A stretch of DNA of 64,000 bases from the IMG/VR virus record IMGVR_UViG_3300010409_000003; one strand, given 5' to 3'. Source of the DNA: a virus (Duplodnaviria > Heunggongvirae > Uroviricota > Caudoviricetes). Numbering within the stretch: the first letter of the stretch is position 1; every line of letters begins with the position of its first letter. This document shows, in pieces, positions 10,743-25,820 of the stretch. The notes under the pieces are model-generated. The model saw only the letters and a list, made by a program, of their open reading frames with translations, ran no database searches and was not told where the DNA came from. The translations under genes were made by a program, and so were the position numbers.

Positions 10743-10753
10743 AGGAAATTACT

Positions 10754-11005
10754 ATGTATAACTACAGCGGTATTGAAGTTGCTAATATAGAATACCAAGA
10801 CTATACTTCTTGTAACCGATGTTCAGCTACTAATGAGATAACCTCTGTAGAAACTTTAAATGGTAGCTGTATCTCAAGTTGTGAAACGGTATGTACTGTA
10901 TGTGGTTTTGAAGATTCTTGGAGTTGTGGTTGGTATGCGAGTTCAGGGTACATAGATAGTAGATGTAATACCTATACGGTAGGTAATAACAAAATTAAGA
11001 GGTAA
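10754..11005 (+). CDS. hypothetical Cys-rich protein
   Basis: 83 aa with multiple CxxC pairs. Confidence 0.45.
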   Translation: MYNYSGIEVANIEYQDYTSCNRCSATNEITSVETLNGSCISSCETVCTVCGFEDSWSCGWYASSGYIDSRCNTYTVGNNKIKR

Positions 11006-11008
11006 TAC

Positions 11009-11215
11009 ATGAAAGGTTACTTAATATCAGTGTTTATAGTTTTCATATTATTTAGTATTCTAGGTAAATACTTGGAAGAAGATGGAGATAACAAATATGA
11101 CTATATATGGGGGTTATTCCTAAGTGTTCTGTGGCCTTTTGTAGTATTAGGAGTTATTTTCAGTAGTTTAATAGAGTTTATAGTAAATAAATTAAAGGAG
11201 AAAATTAATGAATAA
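11009..11215 (+). CDS. hypothetical membrane protein
   Basis: 68 aa with two transmembrane segments. Confidence 0.45.
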   Translation: MKGYLISVFIVFILFSILGKYLEEDGDNKYDYIWGLFLSVLWPFVVLGVIFSSLIEFIVNKLKEKINE

Positions 11216-11429
11216 ATATGAACAATTTAAAAAGTGTACCAACACTACATTTGATGGTGATTCATGGGATATTGAATGTAAATTAGGTTTATGGAGTGTA
11301 AATGGTGTCTGTGAACATCAAGTACAAGACGAAGCCTTACATTATTTCTTACAGTATTTATCTGATGGAGAGTACTTTGAGTTTGTTGGTGGTAAGAGTC
11401 CTACTGAGGTGTTGATGGAGAAGTTATGA
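11208..11429 (+). CDS. hypothetical protein
   Basis: 73 aa. SD AAAGGAGAAAATTAATG. Confidence 0.5.
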   Translation: MNKYEQFKKCTNTTFDGDSWDIECKLGLWSVNGVCEHQVQDEALHYFLQYLSDGEYFEFVGGKSPTEVLMEKL

Positions 11430-11599
11430 TGCTTACTGTAATAAAATTTATACTAATCTTACTAGGTTTGTTATTTGTATACCAATCAGGTGTTTGTCTG
11501 TTTGACTCTACAAGAATAAATGAACATTCAAGCGCTTGGTTTGCTATGGGTCTTGGAGCTGTTAGTATAATGTTAGGTATTTTTACACCTAATTATTGA
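11426..11599 (+). CDS. hypothetical small membrane protein (57 aa)
   Basis: Manual find: MMLTVIKFILILLGLLFVYQ... It has a start/stop overlap with the upstream gene. Confidence 0.35.
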   Translation: MMLTVIKFILILLGLLFVYQSGVCLFDSTRINEHSSAWFAMGLGAVSIMLGIFTPNY

Positions 11600-11793
11600 A
11601 TAAAGGAGGGTACACAATGAGTAAACAACAAAGTGATTTTTTAGCATCTGCTGCTGAGGAACTTAAAGTTATGATTGATTTAGCTAATGAACAATTAAAG
11701 AAAGAAGTTAGTTGTAATTCATTAGATCCACCAGATTATTATGATTATCAAACTTGTTATGAGTTGATGTGCCTATCTAGAGACCTATCCTGA
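11596..11793 (+). CDS. hypothetical protein
   Basis: 65 aa. SD AAAGGAGGGTACACAATG. Confidence 0.5.
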   Translation: MNKGGYTMSKQQSDFLASAAEELKVMIDLANEQLKKEVSCNSLDPPDYYDYQTCYELMCLSRDLS

Positions 11794-11925
11794 CACCTAA
11801 CAATACCTTTCTAAGCCTCTCAGAGCCATTCTAAGAGGTTTTCTCTCTCTTACCTAAGCTACCCTACCACTTAACTATTTAAACCTCTTAAATCGATTGT
11901 TTATAATTAATATTTACCTTAGTTC

Positions 11926-12045
11926 TAAATAGAAAAATCCTCGTAGCAAACTCTAAATTCACCTAAGAACTAAATAGAAAAATCTTCATATAGAAATACA
12001 AATTCTTTGTAAGCCTAAAGGACTAAATAGGAAAATCTTCGTAGA
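11926..12045. repeat. three direct about 22-bp iteron-like repeats CTAAATAG(A/G)AAAATC(C/T)TC(G/A)TAGA
   Basis: Copies at about 11926, 11968 and 12021 inside a 500-bp ORF-free gap. Confidence 0.6.
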
Positions 12046-12318
12046 GAATCTGAAAATCCTTTAGGTCGGTATAATTTTATATAGAATAATGACTTTTATT
12101 TAAAGCAGTAAGTAGTTAATGCACTATATAAGAAGCAATAAAATAATATTAAAAATAATTAAAATAAAACTAGACAAGGTTAATTAATGGGTATAATATA
12201 GCTACAACTTAAACAGAGAACCACAAACAAAAGGCGTTAACAATGATCAATCAAACAGAACAATCAAGCGTGTTAAGTTGGTGTATAATTATTGTGGCAG
12301 TATTACTATCGTGTTTAG

Positions 12319-12639
12319 TTGAAAATATCTAAAGGGGTGTTTAATATGATTACTAAGTTAAGCTTAGACTATTACAGACAAAGAAAAGTAAAAAATAATT
12401 TTAATGTGAAAGAAGACCAAATAAGCATACATAAGGTTATAAATTCCCAATGTGGCTACGATCCACACAATATGAAGAAGTTTGGGACTAGACGACATAA
12501 TAGCTTGTCACTTTTAAGGTCTTATTATAATCGATATACTAAAGGAGGTATAACACTAGACGAATTTATAAGATTGTTAACTACTAGGAAAGACCTTAAT
12601 AAATATTCAAAAAGATTCAAAAAAAAAAAATTAAAATAA
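12319..12639 (+). CDS. hypothetical basic protein
   Basis: 106 aa, Lys/Arg-rich, ends KRFKKKKLK. Confidence 0.45.
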   Translation: MKISKGVFNMITKLSLDYYRQRKVKNNFNVKEDQISIHKVINSQCGYDPHNMKKFGTRRHNSLSLLRSYYNRYTKGGITLDEFIRLLTTRKDLNKYSKRFKKKKLK

Positions 12640-12738
12640 ACTATTGACACCAACAATAAACAATGTAAAATAGCATTCAGAAGTTAAGCAATACATCTTT
12701 GACTAGGCAATTAAGCCAACCATTAATTTATAATATAA

Positions 12739-13413
12739 GTGAGAAATACAATGACTACATCTATCTTTTTAAATAACAACAATGAAGCAGCAACAATTAA
12801 TATTGAAACAGGGCATCCAGAAGGGCATGATCATTTTGTAGTAAGTAAAACGTGGGAACAACTAACAGATAGTAATAAACAAGATATTGCTAGCCAATGG
12901 ATTAAAGACAATGTTTATTGTAATGTAAATCAAGTAATGGAGTTGTTATCTTGTTGTGATACACAAGAAGACTACGAAACGTACTTATCTATTGCAGAAT
13001 ACCAAGATTTTGAGTATGCAAGTACTGACCATATTAATGATTTAAGTATTGAAGAGTTGTTAGAATTAATTGAAGAATATAACCTTGATTTAGTAACATT
13101 AGAAGAGAATGAAGGTAATTCACTTAGTTGTATTACTCATCAGGCTATGACTAATTATATTATCAACAATATTAACCTAGAACAATATGGACAAGACAAC
13201 AACTTAGAGCCAGAGTATCAACAAGCTTATGAATTTTGGAACGTATCCGACCACTTTGTTAGCATGTTACAAGATACGGAGCAATGCAGTAATGATATAC
13301 TAGGTTTATCAGTTTGGGCTAGATACTGTACAGGTCAATCAATTTGTTTAGACACAGCAATACAAAAGGCAGCTTTTAAAGTGTTGAGTGATACTAGTAT
13401 TAATAACTATTAG
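12739..13413 (+). CDS. hypothetical acidic protein
   Basis: 224 aa, strongly acidic. SD AGTGAGAAATACAATG. Confidence 0.5.
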   Translation: MRNTMTTSIFLNNNNEAATINIETGHPEGHDHFVVSKTWEQLTDSNKQDIASQWIKDNVYCNVNQVMELLSCCDTQEDYETYLSIAEYQDFEYASTDHINDLSIEELLELIEEYNLDLVTLEENEGNSLSCITHQAMTNYIINNINLEQYGQDNNLEPEYQQAYEFWNVSDHFVSMLQDTEQCSNDILGLSVWARYCTGQSICLDTAIQKAAFKVLSDTSINNY

Positions 13414-13478
13414 TAAACAATATTTTTATAGCTTATTAAATGTAGTAAGCTATTAGAGATAAATTTTATTAAGTGTAA
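13414..13478 (+). terminator. repeated terminator-plus-promoter module (copy 1; second copy at 14824..14884)
   Basis: tatttttatagcttattaaatgtagtaagctattagagataaattttattaa. Hairpin ATAGCTTATTA/TAGTAAGCTAT followed by a T-rich tract. It is about 90 percent identical to 14824-14884. Confidence 0.5.
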
Positions 13479-13484
13479 ATAAAG

Positions 13485-13694
13485 GTGATGCACATGTTAA
13501 CAATTAAACAAGTAAAAGAAAATGCTTATGTATTTGCAGTAATTATGGAAAGAAACGTAAGTATTAAACAAGCAGTTTCAAGTATTAATAATATATGTAA
13601 TTTAGACATTACTGAGGGTGATTTAAAGTGTTTGATTAGGTTACGAGTACATTACTTTAATATAGATAAAATATTCTCACAATACGAGGTTTAA
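13485..13694 (+). CDS. hypothetical protein
   Basis: 69-aa ORF. Confidence 0.45.
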   Translation: MMHMLTIKQVKENAYVFAVIMERNVSIKQAVSSINNICNLDITEGDLKCLIRLRVHYFNIDKIFSQYEV

Positions 13695-13697
13695 AAC

Positions 13698-13937
13698 ATG
13701 GCGGCATTTTTTTGGAGTAGTACAAGTACAAAAGAACGTATACAACGTTGTAATCAAAAGCTAGCAGATGCAGAGATAAAAGCTCATTTAGCCTTTGCTA
13801 AGTATTCAACTAATGCAAGACGACAGATAGCAGAAATAGAAATCGCTAACTTAATGCAAGAATATGATATAACACATGCTAGCGGTAGTGGTGTGCAAGT
13901 TGAAAATATTGGTAATGGTGTTAAGTTTAAATATTAA
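13698..13937 (+). CDS. hypothetical protein
   Basis: 79-aa ORF. Confidence 0.45.
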   Translation: MAAFFWSSTSTKERIQRCNQKLADAEIKAHLAFAKYSTNARRQIAEIEIANLMQEYDITHASGSGVQVENIGNGVKFKY

Positions 13938-14043
13938 TAAATTAATTTAAAATAAATGATAATAAAGTATTGACATACTAAACCAGAAGAGTAAAATACT
14001 TACATCAACTAAGCAATGGTGCATTAGTTAACAACAAAGAGAT

Positions 14044-14439
14044 ATGATTATGAGTAGTTCAATTGAAATTTTACAGATAAAGTTAGAAGAACTTAAAAGT
14101 AAATTAGATGACGTAAAAGTTAACCTTCTAGATAAACAAAGTGATTTAGAATCTATTGAATTGTGCCCCGATGATTTTATAACGGAGTATGAAGACTGTT
14201 TGAATGAATGTAACGGTGCGTTTATGGGAATGGATGCTAGTTATATACTAAAGCAGCTTGATAATACAGCGTACAGATGCGGGTTGATGGATTATGTTGA
14301 TACTAAAGACGTTACCGAGTGTGAAGAGTACAAAGAGTTAGAACAAGAAATTGAAGAACTTGAAAGTGATATAGAAGATTTAGAAAACGAAATATATGAA
14401 ATTCAAGAAGAATTAGAAGAATTGGAAAATGAAGAATAA
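14044..14439 (+). CDS. hypothetical highly acidic coiled-coil protein
   Basis: 131 aa. The C-terminus ELEQEIEELESDIEDLENEIYEIQEELEELENEE is extremely acidic. Confidence 0.5.
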   Translation: MIMSSSIEILQIKLEELKSKLDDVKVNLLDKQSDLESIELCPDDFITEYEDCLNECNGAFMGMDASYILKQLDNTAYRCGLMDYVDTKDVTECEEYKELEQEIEELESDIEDLENEIYEIQEELEELENEE

Positions 14440-14473
14440 CATTTAATTTAAACAACCATAGGAAACAACACAA

Positions 14474-14620
14474 TGTTAAATAATGCTAAAGTACAAAAGA
14501 TTAAAAACAAGAAGCTTAGAAAAGGTACACAATTCGATAGTGACCAAACATTTAAAATTGAACGTAAACTAGCTAGACAGAGTAAACAGTTTAATCAATG
14601 CCAGTGTATAGGGGGTTAGT
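14474..14620 (+). CDS. hypothetical small basic protein (48 aa)
   Basis: Manual find: MLNNAKVQKIKNKKLRKGTQ... Confidence 0.3.
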
Positions 14621-14824
14621 ATGAATGTATTATATGTAAATCCTATCGGGGGAGTAGATATTAAAGAGAACACTAGTATACTACCACGTGTAGGTGATAG
14701 TGTAGACTTGTACTACAACCCCTATCCTAAAGTGTCCGCAGTTTTATTACACCCTACTAGTGATACTCTAGGGAAGTTAGGTCTAGTGAATATAAGTATT
14801 GATGCAATAGTTACTATTAAATAA
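14621..14824 (+). CDS. hypothetical protein
   Basis: 67-aa ORF. Confidence 0.4.
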   Translation: MNVLYVNPIGGVDIKENTSILPRVGDSVDLYYNPYPKVSAVLLHPTSDTLGKLGLVNISIDAIVTIK

Positions 14825-14884
14825 TAAACACTATTTTTATAGCTTATTAGTTTAGTAAGCTATTAGAGATAAATTTTATTAACA
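14824..14884 (+). terminator. repeated terminator-plus-promoter module (copy 2)
   Basis: ctatttttatagcttattagtttagtaagctattagagataaattttattaa, near-identical to 13414-13478. Confidence 0.5.
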
Positions 14885-14902
14885 ATGAAAAGGAATAGAA
14901 CA

Positions 14903-15223
14903 ATGAATAAAACAATATTAGGATTTATAAAGCGTTCTGATGAGTATAAACTACTCTCTGAGGTGTTAGGACGTAAAGAGGCGTTAAAACAGCTTAAAAT
15001 AGTTGTACGTGCTAATAAAGGCCAATTAGAGGGGTATGACTCAGCTGAAACTGGTAGAGGCTTAAAAGTAAGGTTTGGTTATAATGGAAAACATCTCTGT
15101 TTAATGTCTTTTGTTGGTTGGAGACGCACACCGCAAGGGTTTAAATACTGGGATAATCTGAATGATAAGTTAGTATTAAAGATTAAAAATTATTGCCCAT
15201 CAAAAGATTACACATTTTATTAA
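14903..15223 (+). CDS. hypothetical protein (start trimmed to the Met with AAGGAA SD)
   Basis: ORF track 14885..15223. The Met at 14903 has the better RBS. Confidence 0.45.
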   Translation: MNKTILGFIKRSDEYKLLSEVLGRKEALKQLKIVVRANKGQLEGYDSAETGRGLKVRFGYNGKHLCLMSFVGWRRTPQGFKYWDNLNDKLVLKIKNYCPSKDYTFY

Positions 15224-15240
15224 AATAAATTAATAAAATG

Positions 15241-15300
15241 TGTTGACGTTTATATATAAATCCTTATAATAGGTTTCAAGAGTTAGGAAATGAGTTCCTA
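15241..15300 (+). promoter_or_regulatory. early promoter / 5'-leader module (one of three related copies)
   Basis: TGTTGACGtttatatataaatccTTATAATaggtttcaagagttaggaaatgagttcctaac. TTGACG-17-TATAAT is followed by the hairpin GTTAGGAA-atgag-TTCCTAAC. Confidence 0.5.
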
Positions 15301-15328
15301 ACAGATTATAAATTTTAGAGGTGTTACC

Positions 15329-15835
15329 ATGTCATTATTAAAAACTGACCATTTAGTAAATTTAGGCTCTTGGAAAAACTTTGCAGCAGGTACAGTTGAA
15401 GGGGTGTACCCTAATCCCGTAGAAGCAAATACAATTGCGGATTTAGTCTTATTTGAAAATAGTAGTCATGGTTACAATAGAGTATCGATTACGTTATGTA
15501 ATAGCTTTAATAGCGGTTACATCGGTGATAACATGGAATATAAGAAAGCTACTTTAAATAAGGCTATTAACGAAGACGATTTCAAGTCTAGTACTTTTAG
15601 CGACGATCAAACTATAAAGGATAGTGAATGTGATACAGGTTCTTTTTGTGAATATAACTTTGCTTTAACTCGAAAATATAGCTCAGATAATATTTATCAA
15701 ACTAAAGCTAATACATTAAGCGAACTACTATTACAAATGGCTAAAGATGGCTTGAAAGGTACAGTTACATTTCATTTTACACCGTTCTTTAGAGGTTCTA
15801 TATATGAACCTCTTACGTTAAGAATAGTATTATAA
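15329..15835 (+). CDS. hypothetical protein
   Basis: 168-aa ORF. SD AGAGGTGTTACCATG. Confidence 0.5.
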   Translation: MSLLKTDHLVNLGSWKNFAAGTVEGVYPNPVEANTIADLVLFENSSHGYNRVSITLCNSFNSGYIGDNMEYKKATLNKAINEDDFKSSTFSDDQTIKDSECDTGSFCEYNFALTRKYSSDNIYQTKANTLSELLLQMAKDGLKGTVTFHFTPFFRGSIYEPLTLRIVL

Positions 15836-15849
15836 GGTTAATAAACATA

Positions 15850-15872
15850 AGCCCTATTCAGGGCTTTTACTA
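15850..15872 (+). terminator. rho-independent terminator
   Basis: AAGCCCTattcAGGGCTTTTA. Confidence 0.6.
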
Positions 15873-15889
15873 AACAGGAGAATACAATA

Positions 15890-16279
15890 ATGACTACATA
15901 TATAAATAAATCACCTTACACGTTAGGTCAATTTGGTGAACAGTTAGAAACTATGACATCTCAAGACGTATTTAATATAGCGGCTGAACATTTAGTATTA
16001 CAAGGTGTTAAGAGTGTTGATGTAATGAATTTATGTGCTTATAATGGCGTACACGAAGGTGTAAAAGTGTGTTGTGCTGCTGCCCCTTTTATTAAGGATT
16101 ATGAAGAAGGTATGGAGAATTTACCTTTCAAGGATTTATACAATGTCAAAGATAATGTAGACTTAGTTCAAGAATTACAAATAATACATGACGGTAGTGA
16201 ACCTTTAGAATGGAAAGAAGAGTTAAGAGACTTAGCAGCTAACGAAGGTTTAGAATTACCTGAAATATTGGGAGATTAA
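15890..16279 (+). CDS. hypothetical protein
   Basis: 129 aa. SD AACAGGAGAATACAATAATG. Confidence 0.5.
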   Translation: MTTYINKSPYTLGQFGEQLETMTSQDVFNIAAEHLVLQGVKSVDVMNLCAYNGVHEGVKVCCAAAPFIKDYEEGMENLPFKDLYNVKDNVDLVQELQIIHDGSEPLEWKEELRDLAANEGLELPEILGD

Positions 16280-16300
16280 TTTAGAATAAATGCAAATTAG

Positions 16301-16370
16301 TTGTTGACTACTTAAATTAATCAATGTTAAGATAGCTTCAAGAGTTAGGAAACAAGTTGATAACAACACT
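16301..16370 (+). promoter_or_regulatory. early promoter / 5'-leader module (copy 2)
   Basis: gttgactacttaaattaatcaatgttaagatagcttcaagagttaggaaacaagttg, near-identical to 17021-17090. Confidence 0.5.
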
Positions 16371-16388
16371 AAATAGAGAGTAAATAAA

Positions 16389-17000
16389 ATGCAAATATTA
16401 AATAGATACACAAATGAAGTTATTATAGAAAGTTTAGAAGTTAAGACTATTAAAGAATTAGTAGAATTAGCTGTTAAAGAAGACGCAAACTTAAGAGACG
16501 CAAACTTAAGAGATGCAGACTTAAGAGATGCAGACTTAAGAGGTGCAAACTTAAGAGGTGCAAACTTAGTAAGAGCAAACTTAGTAAGAGCAAACTTAGT
16601 AAGAGCAAACTTAGAAGATGCAAACTTAGTAAGAGCAAACTTAGAAGATGCAAACTTACCTAATTTTTTAATAACCCCTGAAACAGGATCTTTTCAAGCG
16701 TACAAGAAATTAAGACATAATATAATAGTTAAGATTTTAATACCAGATGATGCTAAGAGAACTAATAGCTTAATAGGTCGTAAATGTAGGACTAATGAGT
16801 TCACTATTACAGAAGTTATGCAGAACCCTGCTAACATTAGTTTCAGTGAACACAAACCTTTACAATCTACACATTATGCATCAGAAGGATACTATCTAGG
16901 GGGTACTTTCAAAGAGCCTGCGTACGATGATGATATCCGTTTAGAGTGTACTAAAGGTTTGCATTTCTTTATGACATTAAAAGAAGCCCAAGATTGGTAA
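16389..17000 (+). CDS. pentapeptide-repeat protein (N-terminal A(N/D)LR(D/G/V) repeat array, about 18 repeats, plus a C-terminal globular domain)
   Basis: Reads [58 protein letters not shown], the hallmark of the Qnr/MfpA-type right-handed quadrilateral beta-helix. Confidence 0.7.
16483..16665 (+). repeat. tandem 15-bp DNA repeats (gcaaacttaagagat-like) encoding the pentapeptide array
   Basis: About 12 head-to-tail copies with minor variation. Confidence 0.7.
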
Positions 17001-17020
17001 TTAATTTAAAATAAAGTGTT

Positions 17021-17090
17021 GACTATCTAAATTAATCAATGTTAAGATAGCTTCAAGAGTTAGCAAACAAGTTGCTAGTAATAACTTAGG
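17021..17090 (+). promoter_or_regulatory. early promoter / 5'-leader module (copy 3)
   Basis: gttgactatctaaattaatcaatgttaagatagcttcaagagttagcaaacaagttgcta. The hairpin TAGCAA-acaag-TTGCTA shows a compensatory change relative to the 15271 copy. Confidence 0.5.
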
Positions 17091-17101
17091 GTTATAGGTT
17101 T

Positions 17102-17371
17102 ATGAATAAAATTAAGATAACATTACAAGAATCAGGTTGGTGTACTGACCTACGTATTAACGGACGGGATTTAGACGCAGGTTACAAAGTTAATTATAGT
17201 CTAAATGGTAAGTTAAAAAGTAATAAGGTGTATATGCATAATAGCGGTAGGAGCATAACCTTATACATAAAAATAAAAGGTAAAAGAGTAATGCTACAAA
17301 ATGAGGAAGTTATATATAATGTATCTCCCTACTCACTAGGTATCTATAAGAAGTGGTACATTGAGGTGTAG
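17102..17371 (+). CDS. hypothetical protein
   Basis: 89-aa ORF. Confidence 0.5.
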   Translation: MNKIKITLQESGWCTDLRINGRDLDAGYKVNYSLNGKLKSNKVYMHNSGRSITLYIKIKGKRVMLQNEEVIYNVSPYSLGIYKKWYIEV

Positions 17372-17387
17372 TAAGTAGTTCACAGAT

Positions 17388-17415
17388 AGCCCACTTTAAC
17401 AGTGGGCTTTTTATT
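17388..17415 (+). terminator. rho-independent terminator closing the rightward early block
   Basis: AGCCCACTttaacAGTGGGCTTTTTATT. Confidence 0.7.
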
Positions 17416-17419
17416 GCCT

Positions 17420-19233
17420 AGAATTTACCAATCAAGGTAGGCAGACAGGTACACTTAAACAGGACAAAACTAGGTAGTACACCTCAGTATAAAGACTACA
17501 GATTGCTACTGTTGTATACAAACCCTTAGTTGTTGGTATAAGGCACACTATAAGCTTGCAATACTAAGCTGTAAGAGATAGTAGGAGGCTAGTATAAGTG
17601 TTGTTATAAGGGGGTTAACTAAGTATCAACTAAGTAGCTACTGTTTCTATATGACTGTGTTGTATACTAGAGGATGCTATTTAGTGTTGTGTTCTAGTGT
17701 TATAACCTAGTATGTCAAGTATAAGTGGTAGTATAAGGAGAGACTAAACTAGTTAGTGTAATTAGTTTATACAACTTTAGTTACTACTGTTTACAGTGAC
17801 CTATTGTATATAGAATATAAGTAGTTAATATAAGATAGATAAATATAAGGTACGGTATAAGTTAGTATACTTAGTTGGTCTAACTAGGTTGCTACTGTTG
17901 TATAAGGCTTAAGATAGTTTATATAAGTTATTCTAATGATAGTTGTAAGTATTTAAGTTTTACTAATATAAGCTATTAACCTAGTAGGTGTTTAACAATT
18001 CCCAATTTCCCTTATAAACTACTATAAATTCCCCCATATAAAGCACATCCTACTCTTTACCCTCCATTTTCCCCTATTAAATACTCCCTATTTAGCCTTT
18101 TAATACTATACCCTACCCATTACCTTAGTTTTATCTAAAGTCCTCTTAGAATGGCTCCTAGTGGCTCCTACTCTATGTTGTAGCTATAAACTATACCAAT
18201 ATAAACTTGTCCTATAAGGGGGTAATATAAGTTGAGGCTAATTAGGAGGTGAACTAGGCATAAATATAAGTTTTGTACTATAAGCTTGTATAATATAAAT
18301 AAGCCAATATAAGGCTATTAAATAGGAAAGTGTACCTAGGGTATAGCTAACTAGTTTAAGTGGCTTAGAATGGCTAATATAAGCTTAGAATAGTATAAGT
18401 AGGTTAAGTATAAGAGGTATAATATAAGAGGGCTATACTGATATTTTAGAATTACTAGAGGAATATAAAGAGGGGGAGTGGAGTGGTTAAACACCTCAAT
18501 TATAAAATACCTTAAATATAACTAAAGGTAGTCTACTCTTCCCTCAATACAACAGTAGCAACCTTAGTAGTCAACTAGTTAGTATAATATAAATTACAAT
18601 TATAAATTAGTCACTTAAGTCTACCTACCATAGTAGTCCTCTATAAACTTGCATCTATAAATCTAACACTATTTACATACAACAGTAGCAACTAAGGTAG
18701 TAAACTATAGTAGTCAATCTGTCATGCTAACAGAGTATAATCAGAGACAGTCTATAAGAAGTTTATCTTAATTCTAGTATACAATTTGTTACCTATAACG
18801 TATCATTTTGTCTACCTAATTAGTGTTGTAATAGTTCGGAACGAACAGTGGCAAATTGAGGCTATAAATATAAAATATTACCTCTATAAACTTGTTCATC
18901 ATGTCTTGATATTTTAGTATATAAGCTGTATTAATAATCTTATGAAAACAGGCTGTTCATATACAAATTTAGTTGAAATGGATATTAACTGATATTTGTA
19001 CTATATGTCTATTAAGAATAGTGGGTAAGAATACACTGATATTTTAGTATATAAGAATGGCTCTATAAGGCTTTATATCTAGGTAGGCATACATTTGTAT
19101 GTATAATTGATTTAAGTTGATTAGAGAGCTTCTGAGGAGGTTTGAGGGTATATTTGAAGGTAATTTATCTATAAACAGGAAAGTATATAAATAGATATAG
19201 AAATTGGGCATTATTGAATAGAGGGTATAAGAA
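17420..19233. other. 1.8-kb ORF-free repeat-dense region (candidate replication origin, genome terminus or ncRNA locus)
   Basis: No ORF of 60 aa or more on either strand. The iteron GTTGCTACTGTTGTAT occurs at about 17503 and 17890 (plus) and 18550 and 18682 (minus). There are about 20 (A)ATATAAG(G) elements between 17547 and 18430. The stretch 18000-18130 has almost no G and 18180-18480 has almost no C. CTGATATTTTAGTATATAAG occurs three times (18441, 18907, 19036). Confidence 0.6.
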
Positions 19234-19267
19234 AAGACACTAATATTTAATGTAGTGTCTTTATATT
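19234..19267. terminator. bidirectional hairpin terminator at the end of the leftward block
   Basis: AAGACACTAatatttaatgTAGTGTCTT with T/A-rich flanks on both strands. Confidence 0.55.
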
Positions 19268-19277
19268 AAATTAATCA

Positions 19278-19869
19278 TTAAGAATACTCATGATTCTCTG
19301 GTAATGTTATTCTTGCAAACACTCTATGTATATCTCTGCCTACAGGTAATGACTCATGTATAAAATGGTTGTTGCCGTAGTAAACCTTATTAGCTTTTAG
19401 TAGATGTGGCGTATCTAATTTAATATGCCTACAATCACCACCTACTTTAGGTAAGCCCTTATATTCACCTTGCCAACCTAAACAGCTGGCGTAATTAGTA
19501 GCTAATATAATGCCACCTTTAGGATTCACATACTGCCTATTATGTTCATCAGTATTTATTGCTGCACCATTCTCACCTACCTTCCAACCATTTCCACCGC
19601 CCCCCTCCAAACGACATATTTACGGGTTCATAGTTCCCGTCTGTATGTGGGGAAGGTCTTCTTAGGGTGTTACCACTTTTAAGTGTCTTTCCATGTATAG
19701 TAAAGAATGCCGTACCTTTACCTATTACACCTTGTAACATAGTACTCACAGTTTCTACGAATTCGCTAGGTAGACCTTCTAGTGTTTCTAAGTCAAAAGG
19801 TAACATACTTAACTCCTTATTGATGAACGGTAACTCTATATCATTAGTTTCTTTAAATGTACTAATCAT
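19278..19869 (-). pseudogene. AlkB-like Fe(II)/2-oxoglutarate dioxygenase split into two frames at a G6 homopolymer (frameshift, sequencing error or recoding)
   Basis: ORFs 19573..19869 and 19278..19610 overlap at ...FGGGRW / (L)EGGGGNGW on the run GGAGGGGGGCGG (minus strand, about 19593-19604). Deleting one G gives one protein of about 197 aa with HTDG (HxD) ... HFIHESLPVGRDIHRVFARIT, which aligns to AlkB YHGIQPL...RYNLTFR. Confidence 0.5.
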
Positions 19870-19883
19870 TAATCTCCTCCCTA

Positions 19884-20234
19884 TTAAATTCCAAATTCAT
19901 TATCAATAATCTCATAACCATTTGTAAATATATTATCTAGAATACGGTACATTCCTGCTACAGTATCAAGTAAATCACCTACATAATATTTCTGTGTAGG
20001 TAATCGGCAACTATTAGGGTAGTACTTTAGTAGTTCATTATAGTCCTCCATACTATCTAAGTCTTCTATTGGGGTGCAATCAAAACATAATGCAAATATC
20101 TTATTATCTTCTAAATATTGTGGTGTGTACCTATCTAGTAGAAATTTATTAGTTTTAAATACTACTACTTTTGGTAAGTAAGATCTATTATAATCTGAGT
20201 TGTCTACTACAACCTTCTCTATAGTTGGTAGCAT
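19884..20234 (-). CDS. hypothetical protein
   Basis: 116-aa ORF. Confidence 0.45.
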   Translation of the reverse strand: MLPTIEKVVVDNSDYNRSYLPKVVVFKTNKFLLDRYTPQYLEDNKIFALCFDCTPIEDLDSMEDYNELLKYYPNSCRLPTQKYYVGDLLDTVAGMYRILDNIFTNGYEIIDNEFGI

Positions 20235-20246
20235 TATACACCCTCT

Positions 20247-20525
20247 TTAATTAATATTAATAATGAGCTTATCATCAATAGTTAGACGTACTATACAACT
20301 TTGTGATAAGCTACTAATACTTTCTTCATAGTCAAAGGTATAAGCACCAAAATAGTCTTCTAGTATTTCACACCTCACAACACTCCCTTTGAACTCACCA
20401 CGATAAAATAACTTACCTTTCTCCATACTACTAAATTGTAATATTGTATCTTGTAATTCACTATTACCATGTTCCATAAACTCTTGCCAACTTTTATGTA
20501 CTGTCATTATCCTCTCCCTTATCAA
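20247..20525 (-). CDS. hypothetical protein
   Basis: 92-aa ORF. Confidence 0.45.
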   Translation of the reverse strand: MIRERIMTVHKSWQEFMEHGNSELQDTILQFSSMEKGKLFYRGEFKGSVVRCEILEDYFGAYTFDYEESISSLSQSCIVRLTIDDKLIININ

Positions 20526-20832
20526 AATCTGGTATATAGTGTTCAGCTATAAATTTATATACTGCCAACACTCTACAGTTTTCTTCTACGTATCCATCTT
20601 TACCTTCAACACTAACTTTATGAGTTGCCTGTTCGTCTTCACCTTCTATATATTCTACATTAAGGTTGTAACGTCTAATAAATGCATCACACATATAAGG
20701 CTTAATACAAGCACCTATACGTTCTAGTATGTGATGGTATGTACTTATCTCAAAACTATTAAGCTCTCTGTGTAGAGTGTGTATATAGTGGTTAGCTTCT
20801 GCTTGGTTAACTAGTTTGTTCATTAGATACAC
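20494..20832 (-). CDS. hypothetical protein (paralog of 22522..22830)
   Basis: 112 aa. Shares the N-terminal QAEAN.Y motif and a C-terminal VY.F.A.H motif with the 22522 ORF. Confidence 0.45.
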   Translation of the reverse strand: MYLMNKLVNQAEANHYIHTLHRELNSFEISTYHHILERIGACIKPYMCDAFIRRYNLNVEYIEGEDEQATHKVSVEGKDGYVEENCRVLAVYKFIAEHYIPDFDKGEDNDST

Positions 20833-21941
20833 TCACTATTTAATTTATCTAAGTAATACTGTCTAGCTAAGTCAGAGACCTTCTTACCTACATCTTTCAT
20901 TGTTAACTTAGACTCTTCTAGGGTATCTCCCTCTTCTTTATTTATATCACGATTAACCCAACCAATATAATTACCTATGTTTTTCTGGTCTAACCCTACT
21001 TCATCAACACCTTGTTGTAACCTATTATCAGTCACAGCGTAATCTACAAAAGATTTAATACTATTTAATTTCTCAGGACATACAGCAGCTACAGATTTAA
21101 CTTTAGATACTGAGTGCTTCTTACCTTTAGTCTTAAACCAATTACCACTGTCATAGTAGTACTCTTGTGATAAAGGTGTCCACACTAAACCTTCTCCTAA
21201 GAGTTGCCCCACACCTTCTCCATCTTTTAGGTTTAGTGCTTTGGATACAGGGCAACAGTTTTCTACTTCTTCTGTCAAGCCAACTAGCTTATTTTGAGAA
21301 TACTCAGGTTTGTTAAAGTCTATATTTAATTCTTGATATGGAAAATCTGTAATAGCGTATATACCTGCTTCCTGTGTTAATTCACAAGTTAACTTAGAGC
21401 AAAGTAAAGTATTTAACCAACCTGTTTTATCATCTTGATTAGTCTCTCCTGACTTGATACCAAATATGAAGAATGCCTTATTAGGTAGATAAGAAATACC
21501 TACACCTTTCTGAATACCTTGTCCACACCATTCACCTGAAATCTTAATAGGGAATTTCACATCCCCATAGGATTCCTTAATTTCTTTGTAAGCTCTGTCT
21601 AATATAACTTTGACGTTATCTAGTTTACGAATCATAGATTGTGCAAATTCAGCATTATCTTTATGTACCATTGAGTTATCAAATTCATCTACTTCAGCTA
21701 GTAAATTATTCTTACTATGAAAGGTAATACTCATATCTTCATGTAAAATAATACTCCCATTAGTCCCATGTAACTTAGTTGTACCTATGTAAGTCACTGT
21801 AGGTGCTTTTTTAGATAAGTCAAAAATAGGTTTCTGTGTTACTTCATCATACCCTATATAACGAGAAGAATGTCGTATATTCTTAACTACGTTACGAAAT
21901 TGACCTGTACTATGAAATTTAATATTTTTATCTGTCATCAT
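20823..21941 (-). CDS. RNA ligase, Rnl2-like nucleotidyltransferase
   Basis: 372 aa. IGTTKLHGTNGS matches the Rnl2-family motif I KxHGTN (lysine adenylation site). Downstream EGLVWTP is motif-IV-like. Confidence 0.6.
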   Translation of the reverse strand: MMTDKNIKFHSTGQFRNVVKNIRHSSRYIGYDEVTQKPIFDLSKKAPTVTYIGTTKLHGTNGSIILHEDMSITFHSKNNLLAEVDEFDNSMVHKDNAEFAQSMIRKLDNVKVILDRAYKEIKESYGDVKFPIKISGEWCGQGIQKGVGISYLPNKAFFIFGIKSGETNQDDKTGWLNTLLCSKLTCELTQEAGIYAITDFPYQELNIDFNKPEYSQNKLVGLTEEVENCCPVSKALNLKDGEGVGQLLGEGLVWTPLSQEYYYDSGNWFKTKGKKHSVSKVKSVAAVCPEKLNSIKSFVDYAVTDNRLQQGVDEVGLDQKNIGNYIGWVNRDINKEEGDTLEESKLTMKDVGKKVSDLARQYYLDKLNSECI

Positions 21942-21978
21942 TTATTCTCCTTTAATTTACGTTATAACGATCTACTGA

Positions 21979-22209
21979 CTATCGACGAGAACTGCTTTCA
22001 TCTTTCTCTGTTTGAATCCCTTTATAGAACGCCTCTTTAATCGCGTAAGAGAAAAGCTTTCTCATATTATCTATTTCGGCACATATTCTTTGGTCTGGCT
22101 CATTCAATGCTTGATATTTTATTTTTACGCATAAATCTCGCATTTTATCAAATTGGTCTTTATCCATCACAGGGTTATATTTAACCTCTACCGATCTGTT
22201 GATTTCCAT
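21979..22209 (-). CDS. hypothetical protein
   Basis: 76-aa ORF. Confidence 0.4.
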   Translation of the reverse strand: MEINRSVEVKYNPVMDKDQFDKMRDLCVKIKYQALNEPDQRICAEIDNMRKLFSYAIKEAFYKGIQTEKDESSSRR

Positions 22210-22216
22210 AATTACC

Positions 22217-22522
22217 TCACTTATATTTATTGTAAACTAACTTAGTAAAACATCTGTGTCCTTCAATTCTTTCTACCTCACTAAAACCTAATGCAGTTAG
22301 CATCTTATGTCCTTCTGACCAGTACGTTGACTCTTCCTGTGAGCATAAATATAGAGCTTTCACATATATACTTAGATTACGTTCACCTAGTTGATTCAAA
22401 TCTTCATCAGGTATCTTGTAAAGTTCATAGCTACGTAGAATACGGTTAAGTTGTACGGGCAGTATAACTATCCCATATGTAAGGCATCTTTTTATTAAGC
22501 ATGGTAAGTCATTCTCTGTCAT
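22217..22522 (-). CDS. hypothetical protein
   Basis: 101-aa ORF. Confidence 0.45.
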   Translation of the reverse strand: MTENDLPCLIKRCLTYGIVILPVQLNRILRSYELYKIPDEDLNQLGERNLSIYVKALYLCSQEESTYWSEGHKMLTALGFSEVERIEGHRCFTKLVYNKYK

Positions 22523-22830
22523 TATAATTCTTCCTTACAGTGAGTAGCAACAAATTCATAAACTGTTTGCTCTAAACACTCACCAATTATAATCTCACCT
22601 ACCCTACTTACCACAATTTTCCCTGTGTTTTCACAGTGGTTTATATTTAGTTTATATTCTTCTATAAAGGTTAACACTCTAGTGAATTCTGTATTGTTTA
22701 CTAGAGTTCCATTTAGTATATCATCATAGACACCTTTATAGAAACCTTCTACCTTACAACCTACTTTCTTTTTACAATATACATAATAGTTAGCTTCTGC
22801 TTGTCTAATTGTGTTACTTACATCTGTCAT
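22522..22830 (-). CDS. hypothetical protein (paralog of 20494..20832)
   Basis: 102 aa. The conserved SD context TAAATTAAAGGAGAATAAATG is shared with 21941 and 36866. Confidence 0.45.
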   Translation of the reverse strand: MTDVSNTIRQAEANYYVYCKKKVGCKVEGFYKGVYDDILNGTLVNNTEFTRVLTFIEEYKLNINHCENTGKIVVSRVGEIIIGECLEQTVYEFVATHCKEEL

Positions 22831-22941
22831 TATTTATTCTCCTTTAATTTATTAAGTGTAGCTACTATACAGGCCTTCAAAACAGAAGTCAACACTTAAT
22901 TAGCCAAATTAAGCTAATTATTTAATATTAGCCATAATAGG

Positions 22942-23298
22942 CTAACAACAATTATCTTTATACCACTTATCAACATTAGTACTAACTATTTCGTGTGAAC
23001 ATACATTGGCTACTACATCAGCATCAACCCCTCCATAGTAGTCTTTGTAATATGATATTTCTATGTTAATTACAGTTTTGTAAACTAAACCCCCTTTATA
23101 GTCAGTGTCGTAAGACTGTATATCACTAAAAGCCTCTAGGGTTAAATAACAATTTACATCATCACTAAAGTCATAAGTAGTCTTTGGTTTATATTGTATT
23201 TCTATTTGTAAATCCTCTAAGCTCTCGTCATCTAACTTATGATGCCAGAGTATAAAACTAAACTCATAAGTATCAGTTTCGTTATTATTATTAAACAT
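22942..23298 (-). CDS. hypothetical protein
   Basis: 118-aa ORF. Confidence 0.45.
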   Translation of the reverse strand: MFNNNNETDTYEFSFILWHHKLDDESLEDLQIEIQYKPKTTYDFSDDVNCYLTLEAFSDIQSYDTDYKGGLVYKTVINIEISYYKDYYGGVDADVVANVCSHEIVSTNVDKWYKDNCC

Positions 23299-23311
23299 TG
23301 TTTACCTCCTG

Positions 23312-23590
23312 CTAAAACAATTCTGGATTAGTCTTCATTACAGCCTCTTTCAAACCTGCTATACCACATAATGAAAACCCTGTACTTCCATCCCAATCTT
23401 TAAACCACCTGTCATACCTAATATCAAACTTATATCCATGTTCCTCTTGTAGTTGCTTTAATTCAGCAGCCCAAGCATCCCACTGACCATCATTGATAAC
23501 TGTATGCCCTAATATGTAATAAATATAGCTATGATGTGCTAACATTATCCTAAGTTGTTGTACTCTTTCGGTTATAGGTTTAGTTACCAT
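23312..23590 (-). CDS. small protein resembling domain Ia (N-terminal NAD/NMN-binding helical domain) of NAD-dependent DNA ligase LigA
   Basis: 92 aa. ITERVQQLRIMLAHHSYIYYILGHTVINDGQWDAWAAELKQLQEEHG parallels LigA [49 protein letters not shown]. No adenylation domain follows. Confidence 0.4.
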   Translation of the reverse strand: MVTKPITERVQQLRIMLAHHSYIYYILGHTVINDGQWDAWAAELKQLQEEHGYKFDIRYDRWFKDWDGSTGFSLCGIAGLKEAVMKTNPELF

Positions 23591-23888
23591 TTAAAGCTTC
23601 CTCTAAAGCCTTTTTAAAATAAAATCTACTGTTATTATACTTTAATTCAAATTGGTAACTACCATCACCTTCTTTAGTGGCAGTAAATACGTCATCATTA
23701 ATGTACAAGTGTTCTTTCTCTATAGTGTAAACATAACCGTCTACGGCTACAACATTAGGACAATGAGTGTCAAAATAGTCAGTAATATCCTCTATCAAAC
23801 TCCTGTAGTAATCATTAATATCAATATAATCTTCTATTGTTTTACCTGTAGGTATTAATTTACCTTTAACGTGTTCTATGTTATTCAT
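23580..23888 (-). CDS. hypothetical protein (tandem paralog of 24081..24401)
   Basis: 102 aa. H(V/I)(K/R)GKL(I/R)PTGKTIE(D/E)Y and C-terminal ALEEAL are shared with the 24081 ORF. Confidence 0.5.
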   Translation of the reverse strand: MNNIEHVKGKLIPTGKTIEDYIDINDYYRSLIEDITDYFDTHCPNVVAVDGYVYTIEKEHLYINDDVFTATKEGDGSYQFELKYNNSRFYFKKALEEALNGN

Positions 23889-23907
23889 TAGTAGTCTCCT
23901 TTATTTG

Positions 23908-24099
23908 TTATAACTCATTATCAATAAAATAGTCAAGTAATTCTTCTAAATCTTCAGATTCTTCACTAGTCATGCTACCTTGCTCAATTAGGTATAGTAC
24001 AAACAAAGTAGCACCTTGTACTTTTAAACTTTTATCTCTAACTTCTCTGTTACAAGTAGTGCCGCAACATATTTCATCAATCATGTACACTCCTTGCAA
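23908..24099 (-). CDS. hypothetical protein
   Basis: 63-aa ORF between the two paralogs. Confidence 0.35.
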   Translation of the reverse strand: MQGVYMIDEICCGTTCNREVRDKSLKVQGATLFVLYLIEQGSMTSEESEDLEELLDYFIDNEL

Positions 24100-24401
24100 T
24101 TTTCTAGTGCTTCTTCTAATGCTTCCTCAAAACCACAACCTCCATTGTAATATTTAATTTCAAAGGTATAACTTCCGTCCTCTCCTTTAATAGAATTAAA
24201 TATATCCCCATAAGGTTCTATATTTTCACTTACTATAGTGTAAACTAACCCCTCAACTTCTGTAGCAACTCTATAAAAGTTTTCTCTAAAGTACTCATCT
24301 ATAGTACTATATGGGTAAGATAATTCAATATCCCCTACATACTCTTCTATAGTTTTACCCGTAGGTCTTAATTTACCTCTGATATGCTCTACTTCACTCA
24401 T
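24081..24401 (-). CDS. hypothetical protein (tandem paralog of 23580..23888)
   Basis: 106-aa ORF. Confidence 0.5.
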   Translation of the reverse strand: MSEVEHIRGKLRPTGKTIEEYVGDIELSYPYSTIDEYFRENFYRVATEVEGLVYTIVSENIEPYGDIFNSIKGEDGSYTFEIKYYNGGCGFEEALEEALENCKECT

Positions 24402-24404
24402 AAC

Positions 24405-25637
24405 CTACTCCTCCAAAATTTCATAAAATTTCTGTACTTCTTTCTTAATAATAATATTACGCTTAGTTATCTTCCTAACCACACGTAATCGTCTTAAATC
24501 TCTTAATCTAGATAATGCCACATATAATTGCCCATGTCCAAAACAACCTTTGCCAATATCCAAAGCAACATCGTCTAGTGTGGCTCCTTGTACTTTATGT
24601 ATTGTAGTGGCGTACCCTAACATCAGAGGTACTTGTGTAAATGTAGCTGTTGTTTTCTTAGACACACCTACTATAGCTTTCTGGTATTTAAAAGATTCCC
24701 ATTTGTGTTCTTCAACTTCAACTACACCTCCTTTATCTAATTGTACCTTAACTGGGTATGAGGTATCTAGTACAACTCCTGTGGAGCCATTTACATAGCC
24801 ATCACCATTAGCACATATAACAACTCTACACCCTACTTTAATATTAAGGGATGCTTCTACAGGAGGTTGTGGGAACTCAGAGGCTTTACCGTCAATAGTA
24901 GCTTCGTAAGTGTGTTCTCTTCCTTCTAGTTTAGAATACCAATAGTTATTAATCCTGTTAGTATCTTTCTTAAATGTACAAATATGTAGTATATTATTAT
25001 CATTAGAGCTATAAGGTAAAGATTCTTCTTGTATCAAGTTAAGAGCTTTCATTGCCTTATCTGTACCTCTTCTGATTGCATTAAGCATAGCTACTTGACG
25101 TTTATCATCTTGTCTCCATACTTTCTTTAATTGTACAACTTCGAAGTCCCAACAATTAGATTTAAAACAGAATGGACTATCGTAGTAATCATAATATAAA
25201 TCTTCTTCCTCTTGTGTAACTACAGGTTCAATTTGAAAGAAGTCACCTAGTACAATTACTTGTAGTCCCCCGAATGGCAATGTATTACCTTTAACAAGTT
25301 GTAACTTAGTGTCAATCAAGTCTAAAGTATCAGCACGACACATCCCTATTTCATCAAGTACCACCTTAGTAGGTGGATTGTTACCTTTGAATAAGTTAGC
25401 TAAGTTAACGCTAACACTTTCACAATCCTTAGCTGTGGGAAAACCATGTGGTAATCCAAATAGAGCATGAAATGTCATACCACCTATATTTAAAGCTGCC
25501 GCACCTGTTGGCGCTGCTAATAGTGTTCTATCATCTACAATTTCTTTAATGAAAGTTGACTTACCTGTTCCACCACCTCCAAGAATACATACATTCTCTC
25601 CTGCTGCAACTAGTTCTTTAGCTATTTCGATTGACAT
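24405..25637 (-). CDS. SF1B DNA helicase, Dda/RecD/Pif1-like
   Basis: 410 aa. Walker A ILGGGGTGKST, APTGAAALNIGGMTFHALFGL and C-terminal ATTIHKVQGATLDDVAL are the Dda/RecD-type helicase motifs. Confidence 0.75.
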   Translation of the reverse strand: MSIEIAKELVAAGENVCILGGGGTGKSTFIKEIVDDRTLLAAPTGAAALNIGGMTFHALFGLPHGFPTAKDCESVSVNLANLFKGNNPPTKVVLDEIGMCRADTLDLIDTKLQLVKGNTLPFGGLQVIVLGDFFQIEPVVTQEEEDLYYDYYDSPFCFKSNCWDFEVVQLKKVWRQDDKRQVAMLNAIRRGTDKAMKALNLIQEESLPYSSNDNNILHICTFKKDTNRINNYWYSKLEGREHTYEATIDGKASEFPQPPVEASLNIKVGCRVVICANGDGYVNGSTGVVLDTSYPVKVQLDKGGVVEVEEHKWESFKYQKAIVGVSKKTTATFTQVPLMLGYATTIHKVQGATLDDVALDIGKGCFGHGQLYVALSRLRDLRRLRVVRKITKRNIIIKKEVQKFYEILEE

Positions 25638-25646
25638 TAGTTCTCC

Positions 25647-25820
25647 TTATTCTACGTTAAAGCTTAAAGCTGTGATGCATAGTTCTAACTTTTGTGTACC
25701 ATTAATAGCTTCCATTTGAGTTAACTTACCATAAGATGTACTGCTATATTTATTAATAAAATCTAGGAAAGCTTTTTCTATCTCCCCTTCACTTAACGTA
25801 ACCCTACTTTGTATTTCCAT
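25647..25820 (-). CDS. hypothetical small protein (about 57 aa)
   Basis: Manual find on the minus strand: MEIQSRVTLSEGEIEKAF... It fills the gap between the helicase and the 25820 ORF. Coordinates are approximate. Confidence 0.25.
   Translation of the reverse strand: MEIQSRVTLSEGEIEKAFLDFINKYSSTSYGKLTQMEAINGTQKLELCITALSFNVE

Follow-up and report, generated by a model that had tools for sequence, protein, structure and literature searches.

The DNA considered here (the window, the whole 64 kb stretch of viral record IMGVR_UViG_3300010409_000003) is part of a tailed-phage genome of ~32% GC, and this report concerns a gene-free, repeat-dense region of 1.85 kb lying between two convergent operons within it. 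The window encodes a primase-helicase (1106-3034), a PIF1-type helicase, a Dam-class methyltransferase, and an RNA ligase, as well as a large terminase with a LAGLIDADG insertion, a Mu-type portal, and an E-type major capsid protein. No close cultured phage was found, the capsid protein being at most 26-28% identical to that of any cultured phage. The longest recorded contig bearing window proteins is 90,937 bp. Logan contig SRR5035895_4157 is 100% identical to window positions 17034-30264; its source, run SRR5035895, is a kelp-associated biofilm metagenome (PMC7016772). The contig spans the region unbroken, and the same would be expected if assembly collapsed one copy of a repeat. Genes are preceded by promoters close to the sigma-70 consensus (TTGACA-17-TATAAT-like), and these often have an AT-rich element ahead of them. 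The layout, as judged from gene order, is:

Up to 6200, minus strand: replication operon.
6.2-6.8 kb: divergent control region 1.
6799-17371, plus strand: operon of about 45 small early genes.
17416-19270: the gene-free region under study, between the convergent operons.
19278-36866, minus strand: operon.
36.9-37.5 kb: divergent control region 2.
Beyond the 37.5 kb control region, plus strand: structural genes.

An earlier note, made from the sequence alone, described the region as free of open reading frames (ORFs) of 60 aa or more and offered three explanations: an origin of replication, a physical genome terminus or packaging site, or a locus for abundant noncoding RNAs driven by TATAAG-type promoters. 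Nearly all that it described was confirmed at the given positions. The noncoding status held up, since the longest ORFs overlapping 17416-19270 are 38, 47, 43, and 55 aa. A search for hidden small ORFs (at least 8 aa and led by a ribosome-binding site) turned up just two in the region, of 8-10 aa, and no long ORF was found on reassignment of any single stop codon. The tRNA and noncoding RNA scan that the note had called for found no tRNA or tmRNA in the region, and the covariance-model search no Rfam family at E values up to 1 except on a terminator, where the sole match was a sub-threshold Trp-leader on the left hairpin. In sliding-window folding of both strands, z-scores were around zero or positive, no better than for shuffled sequence, and this together with the lack of any Rfam family rules out a structured RNA in the region. 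A P1-like packaging signal based on Dam and GATC is likewise ruled out, as GATC is absent from the region. Inspection by eye for LexA, IHF, and Fur sites gave partial resemblances only.

Four features lie at or near the borders:

17388-17415, plus strand: intrinsic terminator of the plus-strand early operon (6799-17371), from a terminator scan, followed by UUUUUAUU.
17396-17424, plus strand: best sigma-70-like match at the left border, TTAACA-17-TAGAAT, 10/12, pointing inward (consensus scan).
19114-19140, plus strand: 27-nt copy (96%) of the 5' untranslated and ribosome-binding region of the minus-strand gene starting at 35567 (sequence match).
19233-19267, minus strand: bidirectional hairpin terminator of the minus-strand operon (19278-36866), from folding.

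The flanking terminators had been recognized before, and their hairpins fold far better than shuffled sequence. The left one (17384-17420, plus strand) folds at -13.5 kcal/mol with z = -3.6; the right one (19228-19272) has z = -4.1 on the minus strand, where it is followed by UUUUCUUA, and z = -3.7 on the plus strand. The terminator scan missed the right hairpin because of its 10-nt loop. The earlier note was right in saying that the flanking operons do not have their promoters here: both end in the border hairpins. The sigma-70-like site at 17396-17424 is a possible start of a plus-strand transcript. The copy at 19114-19140 is followed by neither a start codon nor an ORF and looks like the remnant of a gene start.

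Between the borders, the following elements were mapped:

17500-17517, plus strand: iteron copy 1, AGATTGCTACTGTTGTAT, 17/18, outer left member of a dyad (repeat search).
17537-17972, plus strand: TATAAG block A, with 13 TATAAG, all on the plus strand (motif count).
17632-17649, plus strand: degenerate iteron-like copy, 12/18 (match count).
17886-17903, plus strand: iteron copy 2, AGGTTGCTACTGTTGTAT, 18/18, inner left dyad member (repeat search).
17991-18120, plus strand: G-free tract rich in C runs (composition; at most 2 G per 100 nt).
18185-18428, plus strand: TATAA[AG] block B, with 17 TATAA in 240 nt, in a C-poor, purine-rich tract at 18180-18480 (motif count).
18439-18447, minus strand: AAAATATCA copy 1, adjoining a C5 run on the minus strand (motif search).
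18547-18564, minus strand: iteron copy 3, 18/18, inner right dyad member (repeat search).
18677-18694, minus strand: iteron copy 4, 16/18, outer right dyad member, 130 nt from copy 3 (repeat search).
18907-18925, plus strand: copy 1 of the 19-mer TGATATTTTAGTATATAAG, the minus strand of which reads AAAATATCA (exact repeat).
19037-19055, plus strand: copy 2 of the same 19-mer, again with AAAATATCA on the minus strand (exact repeat).

The TATAAG elements are the most numerous of these. About 20 had been reported as closely packed, and 22 were counted in 17537-18430. The region as a whole has 27 on the plus strand and one on the minus strand, compared to 37 and 39 in the rest of the window, so that 27 of the 64 plus-strand copies sit in 2.9% of its length. 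The window-wide total is not above chance (104, versus 118 in shuffles); the anomaly is in clustering and strand bias, not in the total count. The shorter word TATAA is similarly skewed, with 53 copies on the plus strand of 17380-19300 and nine on the minus strand. TATAA[AG] occurs 45 times, and 21 of the 44 successive spacings are 12-16 nt, where random placement averages 4 and reaches 11 at most. Block A includes four TATAAG pairs exactly 12 nt apart (17537/17549, 17593/17605, 17720/17732, 17844/17856).

A transcription unit producing noncoding RNA might be read from such an array, either as one long plus-strand transcript (~17431-19267) or as many short ones carrying UAUAAG repeats, which would titrate an RNA- or DNA-binding factor; in a variant of this explanation, TATAAG would be the -10 element of a phage-specific promoter class. 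The TATAAG strand bias and the mostly positive GC skew fit a plus-strand transcription unit, as do the inward-pointing 10/12 site at the left border and the sole plus-strand terminator at the right border. The absence of any Rfam family and the poor folding of both strands speak against it, as does the count of promoter-like sites in the region, which is not above shuffles (20 versus 18.4). Outside the region, just 12 of 76 TATAAG are between genes, and those within genes are as often antisense as sense (32 each). With no link to gene starts there, and TTGACA/TATAAT-type promoters preceding genes, TATAAG is ruled out as a promoter class, and the earlier proposal of RNAs driven from TATAAG-type promoters was not borne out. 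No sign of a phage-specific class such as that of the T4 late promoters (TATAAATA) was seen, and the window proteins tested yielded neither a sigma factor nor an RNA polymerase, some 27 kb of the genome being outside the window. Together, the decoy and the promoter variant are quite improbable.

One other TATAAG cluster is present in the window, at 30212-30237, where three minus-strand copies are spaced at 10 nt, two of them as exact TTATAAGTAG units. It is within a second gene-poor stretch, 29500-31230, with flanking direct repeats GTCAAATGTTTATTTA (29583 and 31193) and CCTCTTAACTAGGCGTTA (30172 and 31150); this stretch may be an inserted module. A scan of viral contigs for three spaced TATAAG returned giant-virus tandem repeats and chance matches. 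An unrelated 126-kb viral contig (IMGVR_UViG_3300045988_158127) has ~13 TATAAG(T)TAAC elements in an irregular one-strand array on the minus strand at ~2080-3300; this array of TATAAGTTAAC in noncoding DNA is loosely similar to that of the window.

The sharp change in composition between the two TATAAG blocks that the earlier note had described is real, with GC skew going from -0.9 to +0.6 across ~18150 as the G-free tract gives way to the C-poor, purine-rich one. Local C-to-G skew switches are also found in the terminal repeats of phages T7 and KPP-1 (see below), in milder form. The tracts lend themselves to the idea of a transcription buffer, a zone whose main task would be to halt convergent polymerases by means of the hairpins, C-rich and G-poor Rho loading sites, and perhaps a roadblock of arrayed protein. 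Both operons do end in border hairpins; read-through RNA from the plus-strand operon would then encounter the 130-nt G-free, C-rich tract, and that from the minus-strand operon would run into a tract likewise poor in G, complementary to the purine-rich one (18480-18180). Folding of both strands is weaker than in shuffles, as expected of Rho loading sites, and a 130.8-kb contig carrying a homolog of the window's RNA ligase (L246; NCBI assembly GCA_022075865.1) has a 500-nt G-poor tract right after its RNA-ligase terminator. A buffer leaves the 27 one-strand TATAAG, the dyad iterons, and the AAAATATCA cluster unexplained, however, and 1.85 kb far exceeds what termination needs. As the main function it is improbable, and it is compatible with a genome terminus at this position rather than exclusive of it.

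The iteron word TTGCTACTGTTGTAT, reported as four near-identical copies in dyad arrangement, has exactly four perfect copies, on the plus strand at 17503 and 17889 and on the minus strand at 18547 and 18677, and the rest of the 64 kb has no other; when flanking positions are included, the common sequence becomes AGGTTGCTACTGTTGTAT (18 nt). The degenerate copies that had been listed exist in weak form, matching at 12/18 positions both at 17632-17649 and near 17772, the latter on the minus strand. A supposed fifth copy in the 36.9-kb control region (36966-36980) matches at just 12/15. The positions of the copies at 17500, 17632, and 17886 suggest a unit of ~130 bp. A scan of viral contigs with the 15-nt iteron gave single chance matches only.

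Inverted iterons raise the question of an iteron-type origin, in which an initiator would bind the TTGCTACTGTTGTAT dyad and melt an AT-rich stretch, with bidirectional replication starting at the central composition switch. The region does offer four exact 15-18-mers in inverted arrangement plus weak copies, patches of 22-24% GC, and a C-rich to G-rich switch at ~18150 of locally origin-like polarity; the phage encodes a primase-helicase and a PIF1-type helicase, and in linear-genome phages ends and origins can coincide. Yet there is no DnaA box (TTATNCACA) in the region and no initiator gene adjoining it, the primase-helicase being 14 kb off, and the iterons, which are inverted and ~130 and 386 bp apart, do not make up a helically phased tandem set. 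On the genome scale, the region is also a local maximum of cumulative GC skew, as a terminus would be, while the skew minima are at the divergent control regions (6.2-6.8 and 36.9-37.5 kb), which carry paired TCGATTATCAACAA boxes. Iteron-like words occur in those control regions too, pointing to a regulator rather than to an origin-specific protein. Of the explanations in the earlier note, the origin thus did not find support and is unlikely.

The AAAATATCA elements provide a link to a related phage with known ends. Three of the four copies in the window are on the minus strand at 18439-19045; the sequence is the reverse complement of the element reported earlier as CTGATATTTTAG. That element had been listed as three 20-nt copies, of which those at 18907 and 19037 stand as exact 19-mers, while the third (18439) shares only the first 12-13 nt. 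A shorter AAATATCA at ~18990 is a fourth element. Klebsiella phage KPP-1 has three AAAATATCA copies, all on the same strand, in a stretch of 150 bp that spans the left boundary of its terminal repeat, beside several C5-C6 runs; shuffles of the 7-kb locus give 0.2 expected copies. The contig from which L248 was taken, of a 90-kb relative, ends in a similar zone with AATATATCAAT and a C6 run. A one-strand AAAATATCA cluster is shared with a mapped terminus, although for so short a motif this is supportive only. A scan of metagenome contigs with the 19-mer found it in 19, none related to the window.

KPP-1 belongs to the Mydovirus group, whose terminases are among the relatives of the one encoded here. 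The ATPase-nuclease part of the large terminase (TerL, aa 325-798) is 41-44% identical to those of Mydovirus phages (KpS8, VLCpiM5b) over at least 95% of its length. It is closer to TerL of Klebsiella phage KP13-16 (54%) and of phAPEC8-like phages (~50%), and matches those of Vequintavirus (42.6%), Felixounavirus (40%), and Pakpunavirus PaP1 (35%, as for Mydovirus over at least 95% of the length). Terminal repeats are known in this lineage, of 514 bp in Mydovirus and 1190 bp in PaP1, although one Vequintavirus was called headful (see below).

The window's TerL gene itself (42692-45088, 798 aa) includes a LAGLIDADG domain at ~aa 202-256, before the ATPase domain, which is an intein-like or fused homing endonuclease. 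Full-length matches were found in Pseudoalteromonas phage HM1 and Acinetobacter phage TaPaz.

The 514-bp direct terminal repeat of KPP-1, at 116,316-116,829, was identified by doubled coverage and PhageTerm, with T7-type packaging (PMC9862379). Database records give independent confirmation: that of KP12 starts exactly at the left repeat boundary of KPP-1, and that of phage DP has the same 514 bp annotated as a repeat_region at both ends. The record ends of PH357 and KpS8 near the RNA ligase gene were also considered as termini and ruled out, being arbitrary record starts. The KPP-1 repeat is inside a 1.78-kb zone (115,981-117,757) with just two tiny annotated ORFs, flanked by a plus-strand and a minus-strand operon of small hypothetical genes; in the DP chromosome, the corresponding ends have outward-facing small-gene operons. 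A perfect inverted 12-mer is located ~40 nt inside each boundary of the 514-bp repeat. KPP-1, DP, and KP12 thus resemble the window in having a gene-poor zone of ~1.8 kb between convergent operons of small early genes, a related TerL, a one-strand AAAATATCA cluster beside C runs, and short inverted repeats near both repeat ends, with the 12-mers paralleling the inverted iterons here. There is no detectable DNA homology, however, and the Mydovirus zone has sigma-70-type promoters and Fur-box-like palindromes and no TATAAG array. The ends are also mapped there, and predicted from sequence here.

Phage PaP1 is also similar. It is a myovirus of about the same size (91.7 kb), with a 1190-bp terminal redundancy mapped by run-off sequencing (PMC3652863), and this too sits in a gene-poor zone between outward-facing small-gene operons. 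Unlike the region here, the PaP1 repeat includes a gene for an HNH endonuclease and lacks any dense array of short motifs.

For the array itself, the closest likeness is in T7. In the T7 record, the first 340 bp hold 11 CCTAAAG on one strand and none on the other. Most are spaced at 13 bp, and they lie both within the 160-bp terminal repeat and shortly past it; ahead of the right repeat there is a further array on the same strand. What these arrays do in T7 is not firmly established. Both phages have a 6-7-nt motif repeated on one strand at ~13-bp spacing, in T7 within and on both sides of a short exact repeat; here 27 of 28 TATAAG are on one strand, the modal spacing of TATAA[AG] is 12-16 nt, and the blocks flank a central segment. 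T7 is an unrelated podovirus with a terminase of a different lineage, though, and its junction is co-directional rather than convergent. Its arrays span ~0.5 kb, compared to 1.8 kb for the one here, which is several times larger.

Because TerL is akin to those of phages with mapped exact repeats, the layout is the same, a motif is shared, the arrays are T7-like, and the region is noncoding, we consider it probable, with moderate confidence, that the region is the concatemer junction, and thus the physical terminus, of a phage that packages its genome with direct repeats, short and exact, at the ends. The terminus or packaging-site alternative in the earlier note is the one that gained support from the comparisons, through the mapped repeats of relatives in convergent gene-poor zones, the shared motif, and the T7-like architecture. 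Most likely the region is one more example of a familiar type of element, the tailed-phage terminal-repeat region, here with T7-like short-repeat arrays, and not a new genetic system. The candidate repeat, by analogy to that of Mydovirus, would be:

17904-18546: candidate direct terminal repeat, a 643-bp core between the inner inverted iterons.

Packaging would be of the T7 type, in unit lengths, with the region holding a repeat of a few hundred bp and the flanking cis-elements by which terminase finds and cuts the ends. Terminase would cut at two fixed sites a few hundred bp apart, so that each end of the virion DNA receives a copy of the intervening segment. In the linear form, the flanking operons of small early genes would then be at the two ends and transcribed outward, and for this reason would converge on a gene-free zone in a circular assembly. 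The inverted TTGCTACTGTTGTAT iterons may mark both boundaries of the repeat, and the TATAA[AG] arrays, with TATAAG blocks inside and to the left of it, could play the part of the CCTAAAG arrays of T7. The minus-strand AAAATATCA copies, inside and outside the right boundary, would form part of the terminase recognition signal. As a secondary role compatible with this, the G-poor tracts, the purine-rich switch, and the terminators may also keep read-through from both operons from crossing the junction.

Several points weigh against a terminus here. TerL identity to the phages with proven repeats is just 35-44%, and its closest kin, KP13-16 and the phAPEC8-like phages, have to our knowledge no known termini. 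The TATAAG array is much larger than any that we could document at a mapped terminus. AAAATATCA is short, and its four copies in the window are not above chance, only their clustering being so. Another candidate site could lie in the ~27 kb of the 90.9-kb genome outside the window. No close relative was found in which the conservation of this exact sequence could be judged. Finally, one Vequintavirus has been called headful by PhageTerm (PMC13211470).

The size of the array allows for something beyond a packaging signal: its 45 TATAA[AG] copies and the dyad iterons could form an undescribed nucleoprotein platform at the chromosome ends, such as an end-protection complex, a complex at which DNA entry pauses, or a decoy titrating a host DNA-binding factor. 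We regard this as rather unlikely. If it were true, "AAAATATC plus C-run" would serve as a terminus code conserved in a broad clade of myoviruses, both enteric and marine (Mydovirus, the Vibrio phages considered below, and the phage here).

A pause in DNA entry is also at the center of a comparison with T5, on which entry would stop at the repeat-dense untranslated zone once the early operon is inside. Repeat Region 3 of T5 is 1.2 kb long and untranslated, with direct and inverted repeats and palindromes, and lies at the inner end of the pre-early region (bioRxiv 10.1101/866236). The zone here is likewise large, untranslated, and dense in direct and inverted repeats, and ends a block of early host-takeover genes, a 10.6-kb operon of ~45 small genes with several strong sigma-70 promoters. 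It lacks DnaA-type boxes, however, which in the T5 region are typically paired and set within inverted repeats; there is no evidence of a 10-kb terminal repeat like the one that encloses Repeat Region 3, and the capsid, portal, and terminase are unrelated to those of T5. This explanation is highly improbable, and a small remainder of the probability goes to non-functional repeat debris.

If the terminal-repeat interpretation is correct, the physical ends of a ~91-kb metagenome-assembled phage from a kelp biofilm have been placed without culture, and its genome oriented. The combination of a gene-free zone, convergent early operons, and one-strand AAAATATC with C runs would then be an in-silico terminus cue for many myoviruses, and the poorly understood short-repeat arrays of the T7 style would be extended to a myovirus lineage.

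Searches for relatives of the region by DNA similarity, in near and distant modes against 50,697 phage records, gave no match, and look-ups with window proteins returned only the same Logan contig. Of the flanking proteins, one of 116 aa has no homolog except itself, and one of 110 aa (phrog_8970) is scattered across unrelated jumbo phages. The latter lies within 19278-19869 on the minus strand, where overlapping ORFs of 110 and 98 aa match the C-terminal and N-terminal halves of phrog_8970, respectively; judging from these matches, the pair is a frameshifted or split gene directly adjoining the region. Relatives of the RNA ligase are at most 76% identical, the top one on a 1.3-kb contig, and homologs at ~60-65% identity are on phage contigs of ~45-140 kb.

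One of these RNA-ligase contigs, L246, has a noncoding module of its own. In it, 1.8 kb directly after the RNA ligase gene is free of ORFs and tRNAs, and this module is 71-77% identical to noncoding modules in the cultured Vibrio phages 424E50-1 and 501E54-1, which are 88% identical to one another. All three modules have a long C-rich, G-poor tract switching to a G-rich one, and each has seven AAATATC(T/C) copies on one strand (seven of 8-10 AAATATC copies), features counted with the shared signature in favor of a terminus. C-rich tracts comparable to 17991-18120 adjoin AAATATC repeats in these three phages and in KPP-1. Given these identities among the three modules, an analogous noncoding module is conserved about as well as its neighboring genes.

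In public annotations, the modules of 424E50-1 (3146-4655) and 501E54-1 (2452-4441) have 8-11 "hypothetical proteins" of ~29-94 aa, many of them very short; some of these ORFs are probably spurious overcalls. Clusters of Fur-box-like sequences (e.g., AATGATAATGATTCGTATT and GAATGATAACTATTATCATC) were seen in the noncoding modules of related phages, at 11990-12560 in L246, ~16600-16660 in contig L243, ~3095-3165 in L245, ~12650-12700 in L250, and 3715-3770 and 4240-4460 in the KPP-1 locus. In L250, a short unit with a terminator-like hairpin at its end comes next. Such clusters may represent a small RNA or promoter under iron control in phages of marine and enteric hosts.

Elsewhere in the window, the two control regions are related to each other: 6309-6586 and 37150-37424 are 287-bp inverted copies with 77% identity, 30.6 kb apart. 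Each has two TCGATTATCAACAA-related boxes ~95 bp apart that resemble DnaA-like or Fur half-sites; the two at 37.3-37.4 kb are exact, and of those at 6.3-6.4 kb one is exact and the other has a single mismatch. Both also have GTGATCAC palindromes and iteron-resembling words such as AGGTAGCTACTATAGT. A perfect 12-bp inverted repeat, GATTATCAATAG-N6-CTATTGATAATC, at 42046-42079 is just upstream of a putative small terminase gene (42131-42517) and shares a GATTATCAA core with the control-region boxes; it may be an operator for the regulator of the control regions.

In the plus-strand early operon, several genes are each served by a separate TTGACA/TTGACT promoter that has an AT-rich element (AATTAATTTAAAATAAA) upstream. 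An early-promoter cassette is repeated at 16319-16359 and 17034-17074 (41 bp, 97.6% identity, with longer similarity around it), ahead of the last two genes of the operon, and the Logan assembly breaks at this repeat. The penultimate gene (16389-17000) encodes a pentapeptide-repeat protein with a DUF5758 C-terminal domain; the pentapeptide-repeat fold is known from DNA mimics, e.g., Qnr and MfpA.

GATC is strongly avoided in the window, with 33 copies in 64 kb versus ~190 expected from base composition, even though the window has a gene for a D12-class adenine methyltransferase (27607-28443). The control regions account for three of the copies, as GTGATCAC palindromes. Within the minus-strand replication operon, a plus-strand hairpin followed by a T-run (GCTTCTGAGGAGTTCTCAGAGGTATTTTT) at 5809-5834 is related to the element shared by 19114-19140 and 35574-35600, and might block antisense transcription.

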